DNA from: an uncultured Planctomycetales bacterium
GTDB lineage: Bacteria; Omnitrophota; Gorgyraeia; Gygaellales; Profunditerraquicolaceae
Direction: 5' to 3'
NCBI GenBank assembly: GCA_964427405.1
Contig: CAYRUB010000002.1
Location: 68,741-132,740, forward strand
DNA: 64,000 nucleotides
Below the pieces are notes generated by a model. That model had not been told where the DNA came from, made no database searches, and saw only the letters and a program-made list of their open reading frames with translations. This document shows, piece after piece, positions 25,248-29,116 of this stretch. How positions within the stretch are numbered: position 1 is the first letter of the stretch; each line of letters opens with the position of its first letter. The position numbers and the translations under genes are program-made.

Positions 25248-25338
25248 AGTTAGGCAAATATTTTTTCTTTACAAGGTGTCAGAATATAGATATAATAACT
25301 TTCTTAACAGCGGCTTTTTAAGAAAAGGGAAATTTATT

Positions 25339-26223
25339 ATGAAAAACAAAGTATTAAAATTCGGTTTACCTAAAGGCAGCCTCCAGGAGTCTACCTTTAA
25401 GATGCTTAAAAAGGCCGGTTTTAACGTTAATTTGCCCAGTTCGCGTTCATATTTTCCGTCGGTTGATGATTCGGAGATCCAGGCGGTTTTATTGCGCGCC
25501 CAAGAAATGTCACGTTATGTCCAGGATGGCGCGCTTGACTGCGGAATTACCGGTAATGACTGGATCCTGGAGAATAAATCTGACGTGGTTAGGGTTACGG
25601 ATTTAACTTATGCCAAACAGGGTTTGAATAAAGTAAGATGGGTTTTGGCGGTTCCGGAGGGCTCCGGGATTAAGAGCGTAAAGGATTTAAATGGTAAGCG
25701 TGTGGCTACGGAGTTGGTAAATGTAACCAAGGATTATTTTAAGAAAAATAAAGTTAATGTAGAAGTAGAATTCAGTTGGGGGGCAACGGAGGTTAAAGTC
25801 AGCGGCGGACTGGTTGATGCGATAGTTGAACTGACTGAGACAGGCAGTTCCTTGCGGGCGAATAAATTAATTGAGATTGCCACTCTTTGTGAGTCTACTA
25901 CCCAGCTAATCGCCAATAAAAATGCTTATAAGGACAGCTGGAAGAGGGCTAAGATGGAGCAGATTGCCTTGCTTCTACAGGGGGCAATTGCCGCAGAAGA
26001 AAAAGTCGGCTTAAAGATGAACGTAAGAAAAGAAAATCTTAAGGCAGTTATCGTTAAGCTTCCGGCATTAAAGAAGCCCACTATCTCCGGTTTGAGTGAT
26101 GATGGCTGGTTTGCCATCGAGACAATTATTGACGAGAAAGTTGTCAGGGTGCTTATTCCTGTTTTAAAGCAAGCTGGCGCTCAAGGGATTATTGAATATC
26201 CACTGAATAAGGTTATTTTATAA
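25339..26223 (+). CDS. hisG: ATP phosphoribosyltransferase (long form)
   Basis: [15 protein letters not shown] start with RBS AAAAGGGA upstream, and a C-terminal regulatory domain. The track ORF start at 25276 is an upstream extension. Confidence 0.85.
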
Positions 26224-26240
26224 GTAAGGGAGAGGTTATC

Positions 26241-26351
26241 ATGCCTTGTGGAAAGAAAAGAAAAAGACAGAAGATTAAAACCCATAAGCGTAAGAAGATG
26301 CGTCGTCGTCTTCGTCACTTGAAGAAAAGAGCTTGGGGTGGTAAGGGTTAA
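26241..26351 (+). CDS. 36-aa highly basic protein resembling ribosomal protein bS22 (AURKAIP1/DUF1713-like); absent from the ORF track
   Basis: ATG at 26241 with RBS AAGGGAGAGG 8 nt upstream. Product MPCGKKRKRQKIKTHKRKKMRRRLRHLKKRAWGGKG. The KKRKR..K.HKRKK.RRR.R pattern matches the mycobacterial/Bacteroidetes bS22 signature. Confidence 0.5.
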   Translation: MPCGKKRKRQKIKTHKRKKMRRRLRHLKKRAWGGKG

Positions 26352-27366
26352 GTTTTTTCTTCTAGGGCTTCTGGATAATTTTAGAAGGGTATTCTTGAAG
26401 TTACGATATCTTAACAGCGTAGTCTGCCTTTGCCTTTTATTGGCCTTGTTCGCTCCAACTGCCCGGGCCTTAGATGCGGATAGGTTAGAAAACACCCAGA
26501 GTTTAAGCCACTATATCACGGCTATTTATTGCGAAGACCTTGGTGATATAGATAAGGCTATCCAGGAATACCGTAAGGCCCTGGAGAGCGATAATCAGAG
26601 TTCTTTGTTACATTTAAATCTGGCTTCAGCTTTCATTAAAAAAAATGATATCCCTTCGGCAATACTTGAGTTAAAGCAGTCTATCAATCTTGCCCCTGAT
26701 GCCATAGAGCCGCATGCGATATTAGCGCTGGTTTACACAACTCAGAATAAAACGGATTTGGCTACGCAGGAGTATGCGTTTGCGCTTAAGAATGCCGCTA
26801 AACTTGAGCCTGAGAATATTGAGATTTACAAAAATTTAGCTGCGGTTTATTTGCAGCAGCGTAAATTAAAAGAAGCCGAGGGGATTCTTAAATTAATTAC
26901 AGGTTTGGCCCCGCTTGATGCGCAGGCACATTTTTATCTGGGCAGTGTCTATTATGACCTGAAAGATTACGCTGCTACAGAAAAAGAATTTAAGGTCGCA
27001 ATAAAATTAAAACCCGATTATCATGAAGCCTTGAATTTCCTGGGTTATTTTTACCTGGAGCAAAATAGGAATATTGATAAAGCCGGCGGATTGATTAAAA
27101 AGGCTTTAAGTTTTGATCCGGAAAATGGGGCTTATGTTGATAGCCTGGGATGGTTCTATTTCAAAAAAGGTAAGTTTAAAGAGGCGTTAAGCCATTTGGA
27201 AAAAGCAGCGTCTTTTTTAAGCGACCCGGTTATATATGAGCATCTGGGGGATGTTTTTATGAAGTTAGGCAACTGGGATAACGCAAAGCTCAATTGGGAG
27301 AAATCCCTGAAATTAGATTCTACCCAAGAACAAGTAAAAGAAAAACTGCTCCAAGTTTGCCAATAA
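26338..27366 (+). CDS. Secreted TPR-repeat protein
   Basis: Signal peptide VVCLCLLLALFAPTARA-LDAD, then about 7 TPR repeats. The real start is probably the TTG at 26397, giving MKLRYLNS.... Confidence 0.6.
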   Translation: MVRVKFFLLGLLDNFRRVFLKLRYLNSVVCLCLLLALFAPTARALDADRLENTQSLSHYITAIYCEDLGDIDKAIQEYRKALESDNQSSLLHLNLASAFIKKNDIPSAILELKQSINLAPDAIEPHAILALVYTTQNKTDLATQEYAFALKNAAKLEPENIEIYKNLAAVYLQQRKLKEAEGILKLITGLAPLDAQAHFYLGSVYYDLKDYAATEKEFKVAIKLKPDYHEALNFLGYFYLEQNRNIDKAGGLIKKALSFDPENGAYVDSLGWFYFKKGKFKEALSHLEKAASFLSDPVIYEHLGDVFMKLGNWDNAKLNWEKSLKLDSTQEQVKEKLLQVCQ

Positions 27367-28187
27367 TGGAAAACAATCAATTATCAGTAAAAGAATTAGA
27401 GGCTAAGGCCAAAGAGGCCCGGCGTCTAATTATTGAGATGCTGGCTAAGGCCGGCTCAGGGCATCCCGGAGGAAGCCTTTCTGCCGCGGATTTAGTTGTC
27501 GCATTATACTTTAATATCTTACGTTTTAATCCAAAAGATCCGCAATGGCCGGACAGGGACCGTTTTCATATGTCTAAGGGACACTGTTGTCCGCTTTGGT
27601 ATGCGGTATTAGCGCAAACAGGTTATTTTCCGAAAGAAGAATTAATGACTTTGCGGCAATTAGGCTCGAATCTTCAGGGGCATCCTGTCCGTTTGACTCC
27701 GGGTATTGAATCAGCATCCGGCTCGCTTGGCCAGGGGCTTTCTATTGGTTTGGGGATGAGCCTGGCGGCAAAAATGGATAAAAAAGATTATCGGGTTTAT
27801 GTTTTATTGGGAGACGGGGAGACGCAAGAGGGAAATATCTGGGAGGCAGCTATGGCTTGCAGCCATTTTTCCTGCGATAATATTTGCGCTATTTTAGATT
27901 TTAACGGTTGTCAGATTGACGGTAAATGCGAAGATATAATGGGAGTAGAGCCATTAGCTGCTAAATGGCAGGCATTTGGCTGGCATGTGATTGAGATTGA
28001 CGGCCATGACATGCGGCAGATTTTATCCGCTTATGAGCAGGCCAAGACAGTAAAATCCAAGCCCACAATAATTATCGGCCGCACTATAAAAGGAAAAGGG
28101 GTCTCATTTATGGAAGGCGTAATAGGCTTTCATGGTAAAGCTCCTACTAAAGAAGAAGCAGAAAAGGCTTTAAGGGAGTTGGCATAA
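27366..28187 (+). CDS. Transketolase, N-terminal (TPP-binding) subunit
   Basis: GSGHPGGSLSAADLVVALYF and the TPP-binding GDGETQEGNIWEA. Split-gene transketolase. TAATG overlap with the upstream gene. Confidence 0.85.
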   Translation: MENNQLSVKELEAKAKEARRLIIEMLAKAGSGHPGGSLSAADLVVALYFNILRFNPKDPQWPDRDRFHMSKGHCCPLWYAVLAQTGYFPKEELMTLRQLGSNLQGHPVRLTPGIESASGSLGQGLSIGLGMSLAAKMDKKDYRVYVLLGDGETQEGNIWEAAMACSHFSCDNICAILDFNGCQIDGKCEDIMGVEPLAAKWQAFGWHVIEIDGHDMRQILSAYEQAKTVKSKPTIIIGRTIKGKGVSFMEGVIGFHGKAPTKEEAEKALRELA

Positions 28188-29116
28188 TGGCAGAGCAGCT
28201 TTATCAAAGGGATGTTTACGGCCAGACATTAGTGAAACTTGGCGCATCAGATAAGAATATTGTGGTTTTAGACGCCGATCTTTCCAGCTCTACCCGGACG
28301 AATCTTTTTGCCAAGCAATTCCCGGACAGATTTTTTAATTTTGGCGTAGCAGAGCAGAACATGATGGCTACGGCCGCAGGATTAGCCAGCTGCGGTAAAA
28401 CGGTTTTTCTTTCTACCTTCGCCGTTTTTGCAGCAGGCCGTGCCTGGGATCAGATACGGGTTTCCATAGCTTATAATAATTTCAATGTTAAAATTGTAGC
28501 TACTCATGCCGGTATTACCGTAGGACCGGATGGCGCAAGCCACCAGGCCCTGGAGGACATTGCGTTGATGCGCGTGCTTGCCGGTATGAATATTATTGTT
28601 CCTTGCGACGGCCCTCAGACAGCAGATGCGATTATTGCCGCAGCAAATACTCCGGGACCTTTTTATATCCGCTTAGGCCGCTCAAAATTTCCTACTATTG
28701 AGAATAAAAATGAGTTTAAATTCGGTAAAGCCCAGGTGATCTCTGAAGGAGACGATCTCACTATTATCGCCTGCGGAATAATGGTTTCGGAGGCGCTCTT
28801 AGCAGTGAAAAGTTTGGCGCAAAAAGGGATTAAGGCGCGCCTGATTAATATGCATACTATTTGGCCGCTGGATAATGAAATTATTCTTAAGGCCGCTAAA
28901 GAAACTAAGTTTTTTGTTATCTGTGAAGAGCATAATGTTATCGGAGGCCTGGCTTCCAGCGTCGATGCAGTCGTTGCTGAACATTGTCCCAGGAAAGTTA
29001 TCCGTCTTGGTATTCGTAACCGCTTTGGCCAATCAGGCCAGCCGGAAGAGCTCTTAAAAGAATATAATCTTACCAGCCTGGATATAGAAAAAGCGGTTTT
29101 ATCCAATATCTCCTAA
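28187..29116 (+). CDS. Transketolase, C-terminal (pyrimidine-binding) subunit
   Basis: Transketolase pyrimidine-binding domain plus C-terminal domain. Start overlaps the stop of the N-terminal subunit gene. Confidence 0.85.
   Translation: MAEQLYQRDVYGQTLVKLGASDKNIVVLDADLSSSTRTNLFAKQFPDRFFNFGVAEQNMMATAAGLASCGKTVFLSTFAVFAAGRAWDQIRVSIAYNNFNVKIVATHAGITVGPDGASHQALEDIALMRVLAGMNIIVPCDGPQTADAIIAAANTPGPFYIRLGRSKFPTIENKNEFKFGKAQVISEGDDLTIIACGIMVSEALLAVKSLAQKGIKARLINMHTIWPLDNEIILKAAKETKFFVICEEHNVIGGLASSVDAVVAEHCPRKVIRLGIRNRFGQSGQPEELLKEYNLTSLDIEKAVLSNIS

Follow-up and report, generated by a model that had tools for sequence, protein, structure and literature searches.

The 64,000-nucleotide stretch of DNA analysed here (the window) carries, directly after hisG, a 36-codon ORF that very probably encodes the Omnitrophota ortholog of the small-subunit ribosomal protein bS22, in the 'MPxG' type of Bacteroidota and Borrelia. 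This kind of bS22 is itself already known from the ribosome structures of Borrelia and Bacteroidetes; what is new here is bS22 in Omnitrophota. The features that make up the locus are the following:

25268-25296, forward strand: promoter-like site TTTACA-17-TATAAT upstream of hisG (11/12 consensus matches, a consensus match only)
25336-26223, forward strand: hisG (ATP phosphoribosyltransferase), the upstream neighbour, with Pfam HisG and HisG_C in the syntenic loci
26226-26235, forward strand: Shine-Dalgarno (SD) site AAGGGAGAGG, 5 nt before the ATG
26241-26351, forward strand: putative bS22 gene (rpsV-like), ATG, 36 codons, TAA; product MPCGKKRKRQKIKTHKRKKMRRRLRHLKKRAWGGKG
26395-27366, forward strand: TPR protein gene, with its corrected start TTG at 26395 and SD AGAAGGG at 26383-26389

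An earlier, sequence-only reading of this DNA had described a strong ribosome-binding site followed by an ATG and a 36-codon ORF after hisG, and the locus bears this out. The same reading called the ORF unannotated, which is true of its name and not of its calling: public pipelines do call the ORF, and Omnitrophota bS22 peptides are present in public sources as 'hypothetical protein' only (e.g., OQB08986.1). Because the hisG stop codon (TAA, 26221-26223) is separated from the ATG by a spacer of 17 nt, a scan of this gap found no terminator-like site, and a promoter-like site precedes hisG, the bS22 gene is probably carried on the hisG transcript. Lysine and arginine make up 19 of the 36 residues (53%); no other short ORF of the 64 kb window (G+C ~42%) attains a Lys/Arg share of 50%. 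The window contains no 16S rRNA, and an Rfam scan of it detected seven tRNAs only and no match at the bS22 locus. The peptide carries all the marks of the MPxG type: a length of 28-36 residues, more than 50% Lys/Arg, an M-P-x-G N-terminus, T/x-H-K-R-K-K at positions 14-19, and R-H at positions 25-26. Among 25 relatives these motifs vary little or not at all, and they are common to the PDB chains 8FMW_V, 7JIL_5, and 9I5V_10.

A phmmer search of the PDB with the single 36-aa peptide, at E up to 10, matched exactly three sequences, all of them bS22 chains of cryo-EM ribosomes:

8FMW_V, Borrelia burgdorferi, MPCGRKRKLKKISTHKRKKKRRKNRHKK, phmmer E 2.1e-5
7JIL_5, Flavobacterium johnsoniae, MPSGKKRKRHKVATHKRKKRARANRHKKKK, phmmer E 1.2e-4
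9I5V_10, Porphyromonas gingivalis (organism from PMC12123416), MPNGKKRKRHKMATHKRKKRLKKNRHKKKK, phmmer E 4.9e-3

All three align with the peptide from residue 1, ungapped and in register, over residues 1-28/30. A family profile built from 25 distinct relatives (alignment A1) detected the same chains with E-values of 6.1e-12 (8FMW_V), 3.1e-10 (7JIL_5), and 2e-8 (9I5V_10), and nothing else at E up to 10. Non-basic residues also coincide in the window peptide and the three chains, namely M1, P2, G4, an aliphatic residue at position 12 (I/V/M), T14, H15, and H26. The sequence-only reading had itself warned that the similarity might be compositional only. We permuted its residues 2-36 at random 20,000 times and scored the results by BLOSUM62 local alignment; none of these composition-preserving shuffles attained the observed score against 8FMW_V, 7JIL_5, or 9I5V_10 (z 11.7, 11.5, and 9.8, respectively), so that Lys/Arg richness does not account for the match. 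Of the two likenesses which that reading had drawn, the one to the Bacteroidetes protein is therefore upheld and extends to Borrelia, whereas the one to mycobacterial bS22 (33 aa, PDB 5O5J/5O61) is not: here the pairwise score does not rise above what composition alone gives (z 1.2), and 2,601 of 20,000 shuffles reach it.

Other small ribosomal proteins (bTHX, bL34, bL36, and bL38) were rejected, since the PDB matches at E up to 10 were bS22 chains only and Pfam and NCBIfam returned no such family. A search of protein representatives covering 1.8 billion sequences gave no match for the peptide at E up to 1e-3, which is expected for a 36-aa polybasic query and is no measure of family size. A protein of the MPxG type is expected to be a single, possibly bent, alpha-helix. 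AlphaFold2, run on the single sequence, predicts one helix spanning residues 5-32 (mean pLDDT 85), which is weak support, since a helix may be predicted for any peptide of this kind; Foldseek found no match to this predicted helix in the PDB, a single helix being too short for Foldseek.

We then have the evidence of conservation, which comes from an unbiased set of loci fetched via the window hisG alone, with one genome per species. The best hisG matches were Candidatus Omnitrophota MAGs (top match Omnitrophica UBA6253, 96% identity), followed by about 50 further Omnitrophota species down to ~64% identity, then by Verrucomicrobiota, Acidobacteriota, and Bacteroidota. This order of matches assigns the window to an uncultured member of Omnitrophota. 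The Omnitrophota-like loci are L009-L059, of which L016 was left out for having no downstream sequence, making 50 assessable loci. An ORF beginning with MPCG follows hisG in 48 of these 50 (hisG identity from 96 down to 64%), at a distance from the hisG stop codon of 6-213 nt (median 26 across loci with the ORF). The copy in L053 is cut by the contig end, and no polybasic ORF was found after hisG in L042 (2429-2900) and L058 (1787-2300). An SD-like tetramer is present at -18..-4 in 46 of the 50 related loci, as against 13.8% at random positions; the expectation of the sequence-only reading that relatives would retain the ORF together with a ribosome-binding site was thus correct.

Nine residues (M1, P2, C3, G4, K6, H15, K19, R25, and H26) are invariant in the 25 relatives of A1. 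Applied to codons 1-28 of 50 sequences, the Nei-Gojobori method gives a mean pairwise pS of 0.84 (saturated) and pN of 0.19, and the window copy differs from that of L011 by 13 synonymous and no nonsynonymous changes. Selection on the ORF is strongly purifying. In public assemblies, 110 blocks have the exact 36-aa protein among their gene calls; its copies in eight fetched contigs differ at up to 17 of 111 nt, all of these differences being synonymous, although this set was chosen for identity and cannot stand alone as conservation evidence. These calls and the retention of the ORF in the 48 independently retrieved loci together confirm that it is a real gene, more than a product of chance.

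The family also shows variation within Omnitrophota. A C-terminal R-x-W-(G/A/N) tail is present in the main clade (A1; window residues 31-36, 26332-26348), where Trp32 is conserved, and GGKG is appended to it in the closest relatives of the window, whose own C-terminus reads …HLKKRAWGGKG. In a sub-clade (L046 3895-, L050 3982-, L051 1928-, L055 3330-, L056 1781-), RHWFKK takes the place of the otherwise invariant THKRKK (MPCGRKRKLKKVKRHWFKKRRKxQRHK..), which puts two aromatics midway along the basic helix. The small gene has a GTG start in L047 (3880) and L069 (3930), as reported for Borrelia bS22, and such starts would hamper automatic annotation further.

Some assemblies in the set carry unexpected titles. 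Ten MAGs (L012, L014, L019, L026, L039, L047, L048, L055, L058, and L065) have a hisG 63-88% identical to that of the window, and several of them are titled 'uncultured Planctomycetales/Planctomycetia', while two bear archaeal titles ('Methanosarcinales archaeon' for L058, 'Thermococci archaeon' for L065). The MPCG ORF is present in most of the MAGs titled Planctomycetales/Planctomycetia and absent from the two with archaeal titles. The MAGs with Planctomycetales/Planctomycetia, Methanosarcinales, and Thermococci titles are probably mislabelled bins.

On the downstream side, a mechanical choice of the longest ORF starts the TPR gene at GTG 26338, so that it shares 14 nt with the end of the bS22 ORF. 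The sequence-only reading had noticed this overlap and had proposed a later TTG start, rightly so: the TTG and its AGAAGGG SD (5-6 nt upstream) are conserved in L001, L002, L004, and L006-L010, a stop codon interrupts the reading frame ahead of the TTG in L007, L009, L002, and L010, and public gene calls for the TPR gene begin at this TTG. We therefore regard GTG 26338 as an artefact and place the TPR start at TTG 26395, without overlap with the bS22 gene. The N-terminus of the resulting protein, MKLRYLNSVVCLCLLLALFAPTARA followed by LD, resembles a signal peptide. In eight fetched contigs the bS22 ORF lies between hisG and the TPR gene, after which come a split transketolase, an ispE-like kinase, spoVG, a glmU-like gene, and prs; the order hisG-bS22-TPR-tktN-tktC-ispE-like-spoVG is conserved in related contigs. 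The transketolase of the window (27294-29116) is likewise present as two genes, N-terminal at ~27366-28187 and C-terminal at 28187-29116.

A conserved polybasic peptide may also have a role outside the ribosome, whether it binds polyphosphate or nucleic acid or serves as a micro-protein that is coupled to hisG/TPR and has a regulatory function, and owe its likeness to bS22 to ancestry or constraints. Such a role would fit with the tight, phylum-wide linkage to hisG, which is unusual for a ribosomal protein gene, and with the RxW(G) tail, which is specific to Omnitrophota and not found in verified bS22. However, genes for small ribosomal proteins often lie dispersed over the genome. The similarity to three ribosome-resident bS22 proteins is moreover full-length, ungapped, and in register, it includes non-basic positions, and the PDB search returned bS22 chains alone; we consider a non-ribosomal role improbable.

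Still less credit can be given to an upstream or leader ORF whose translation, and not its product, would regulate the TPR gene or mark the end of the his transcript. The ORF does occupy the short gap just before the TPR gene and is overlapped by the longest-ORF call, but the actual TPR start lies 44 nt further on and is served by an SD of its own, and the same peptide is found after hisG also in loci where the downstream genes differ. No pure uORF would retain nine invariant residues, and the pattern of strong purifying selection on the amino acids with saturated synonymous sites largely refutes this reading. A his attenuator or leader peptide was rejected as well, the ORF being downstream of hisG, without a His-codon run (two separated His codons), and strongly conserved in its peptide; a type I toxin was rejected for want of a hydrophobic segment. 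Hardly credible at all is an ORF present by chance in an A/G-rich spacer, or a real gene on the opposite strand in the form of a 104-aa antisense ORF (26181-26495, reverse strand). Short ORFs are common, and the region has no stop codon in the antisense frame; this openness is explained by the Lys/Arg codons, whose reverse complements never read as stops. In 14 of 50 relatives the antisense frame is closed, and the conservation of the sense ORF, with its SD, in the independently fetched loci refutes both versions. Identity as bS22 is thus the reading that we follow below, and we infer that the Omnitrophota protein resides in the ribosome.

The curated HMMs do not recognize it. The comparison with the DUF1713/COX24_C model that the sequence-only reading had suggested was negative (Pfam COX24_C, PF08213: E 4.1, 7.8 bits, below the cutoff of 23), and an NCBIfam search including NF047430 (ribo_bS22) gave no match to the window peptide. 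These negatives are nevertheless uninformative, because the cryo-EM-verified bS22 proteins of Borrelia and Flavobacterium fail COX24_C and NF047430 as well. M. smegmatis bS22, run as a control, passes both models (62.6 bits for NF047430 and 46.2 bits for COX24_C). The two models cover the actinobacterial/mitochondrial type of bS22 only, and current Pfam/NCBIfam models are blind to the MPxG type, verified cases included.

Among known proteins, B. burgdorferi bS22 (bb0822; 8FMW chain V; PMC10618245) shares with the window peptide an MPCG N-terminus followed by [KR]KRK..KI.THKRKK..R..RH, with residues 1-28 ungapped. Both are tiny, helical (by prediction, for the window peptide), more than 50% Lys/Arg, and missed by genome annotation. 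The Borrelia gene has a GTG start, as does the relative L047, whereas the window gene has an ATG with a strong SD and follows hisG; the window protein is also eight residues longer at its C-terminus (…HLKKRAWGGKG), with the clade-conserved Trp32. The Bacteroidota proteins (F. johnsoniae Fjoh_1533, 7JIL chain 5; P. gingivalis, 9I5V chain 10; PMC7797042, PMC12123416) share the pattern MPxG…THKRKK…RH, but their residue 3 is Ser/Asn and they end in a Lys run, while the window peptide has Cys3 and ends in RAWG(GKG). The RxW(G) tail is absent from the bS22 of Borrelia, Flavobacterium, and Porphyromonas alike. A further difference is that Bacteroidia ribosomes sequester their anti-SD, whereas the Omnitrophota genes studied here have clear SDs.

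Actinobacterial bS22 (M. smegmatis, M. tuberculosis, C. acnes; NF047430, PF08213) and mitochondrial mS38/AURKAIP1 resemble the window peptide in that they are equally small, basic, and helical. They occupy the same rRNA pocket as other bS22 in the structural papers. The actinobacterial N-terminus is MGSVIKK as opposed to MPCGKK in the window, and there is no significant direct sequence match. The link of the window peptide to mycobacterial bS22 appears only through profiles and syntenic intermediates.

These intermediates come from Verrucomicrobiota and from L069. In Verrucomicrobiota, an ORF of 34 aa, MGSIKKRRKAKIAKHKRRKRMKLNRHKKRLRYKS, stands directly after hisG:

L071, 3891-3995
L079, 3889-
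L072 and L081, 3918-
L074, 3920-

The five peptides have the consensus MGS[IL]KK[KR]RK[AS]KI[AN][KN]HKRRKRMK[LA]NRHKKRLRYKS and match COX24_C with E 1e-4 to 5e-4 (20-22 bits, cutoff 23); they match F. johnsoniae bS22 with E 4e-3 and an mS38 chain with E 0.34. Their sequence appears intermediate between mycobacterial bS22 and the MPxG type. In L069, the ORF after hisG is (GTG)GSIKKKRRSKMSKHKYKKRMKALRHKNK, i.e., MGSIKKKRRSKMSKHKYKKRMKALRHKNK; it reaches 33.6 bits with COX24_C (cutoff 23) and is named 'AURKAIP1/COX24 domain-containing protein' by NCBI. An hhalign comparison of the MPCG profile with an alignment of actinobacterial and intermediate sequences gave a probability of 92.8% (E 4e-7) with columns 4-31 in register, a score that may be inflated, as very short polybasic sequences of low complexity inflate profile scores. 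No such ORF was found near hisG in the Bacteroidetes loci fetched by hisG.

The hisG-linked small ORFs may form a continuum, from MPCG…THKRKK in Omnitrophota through MGSIKKRRKAKIAKHKRRK in Verrucomicrobiota to MGS(V)IKKRR…K(H)K in L069 and the Actinobacteria, a proposal for and against which we see about equal chances. From positional orthology and graded similarity combined, the MPxG and MGS types are likely to belong to one family. The hisG-bS22 gene pair spans at least two PVC phyla.

In solved ribosomes, bS22 fills a pocket formed by 16S h2, h27, h44, and h45 and contacts 23S H68/H70 (PMC10618245, PMC7797042, PMC12123416); in Bacteroidota, it lies between h44 and h45 and touches 23S H70 (PMC7797042, PMC12123416). 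The loss of M. smegmatis bS22 increases kanamycin susceptibility, through h44 (10.1101/2023.03.31.535098). The window protein most likely acts as bS22 does in these ribosomes. It would be translated from its own SD site, on a message most likely shared with hisG, and the ~53% Lys/Arg peptide would form a single alpha-helix, as do its homologs. By homology with them, this helix would enter the 16S rRNA pocket of h2, h27, h44, and h45, beside the decoding centre, and its C-terminal end would reach 23S H68/H70, making an extra intersubunit contact. The protein may in this way stabilise h44 and shape the aminoglycoside-binding region. We speculate that Trp32 of the longer C-terminus would sit at the subunit interface. 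The clear SDs of the Omnitrophota genes argue against a role of bS22 in SD-independent initiation, as in mycobacteria.

The bS22 genes of Borrelia, F. johnsoniae, and P. gingivalis were unannotated or 'hypothetical' until cryo-EM density revealed their products (PMC10618245, PMC7797042, PMC12123416), and the Borrelia authors foresaw bS22 in more species, with annotation tools missing such genes (PMC10618245). Trypsin digests so basic a peptide to fragments, and Borrelia bS22 went undetected by mass spectrometry in this way. Papers up to 2026 describe the protein in Mycobacteria, Cutibacterium, Bacteroidia, and Borrelia, one 2026 paper naming Mycobacteria and Bacteroidia. Our literature search found no paper pairing bS22 with Omnitrophota, and bS22 and Verrucomicrobia were co-mentioned only in two unrelated gut-microbiota studies. 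The value of the present analysis lies in annotation, in the phyletic range of bS22, and in the homology argument for its two types, together with the corrected TPR start; it brings no new mechanism.

For a protein that adjoins the decoding centre and the aminoglycoside site, the evidence of sequence would place bS22 in the whole uncultured phylum Omnitrophota and in Verrucomicrobiota, and this justifies a new HMM and the re-annotation of thousands of 'hypothetical' genes of 29-36 aa. The conserved hisG-bS22 pair supplies intermediates that may tie the two bS22 sequence types together. If the continuum is true, the 'structural homolog' bS22 of Bacteroidota/Borrelia and the COX24_C/mS38-type proteins would be one ancient family and not convergent look-alikes, which would contradict the convergence of bS22 types speculated in PMC12123416. 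The Omnitrophota branch would then have gained a Trp-containing C-terminal tail at the subunit interface, and bS22 would be widespread, yet systematically unannotated, across PVC and other phyla.
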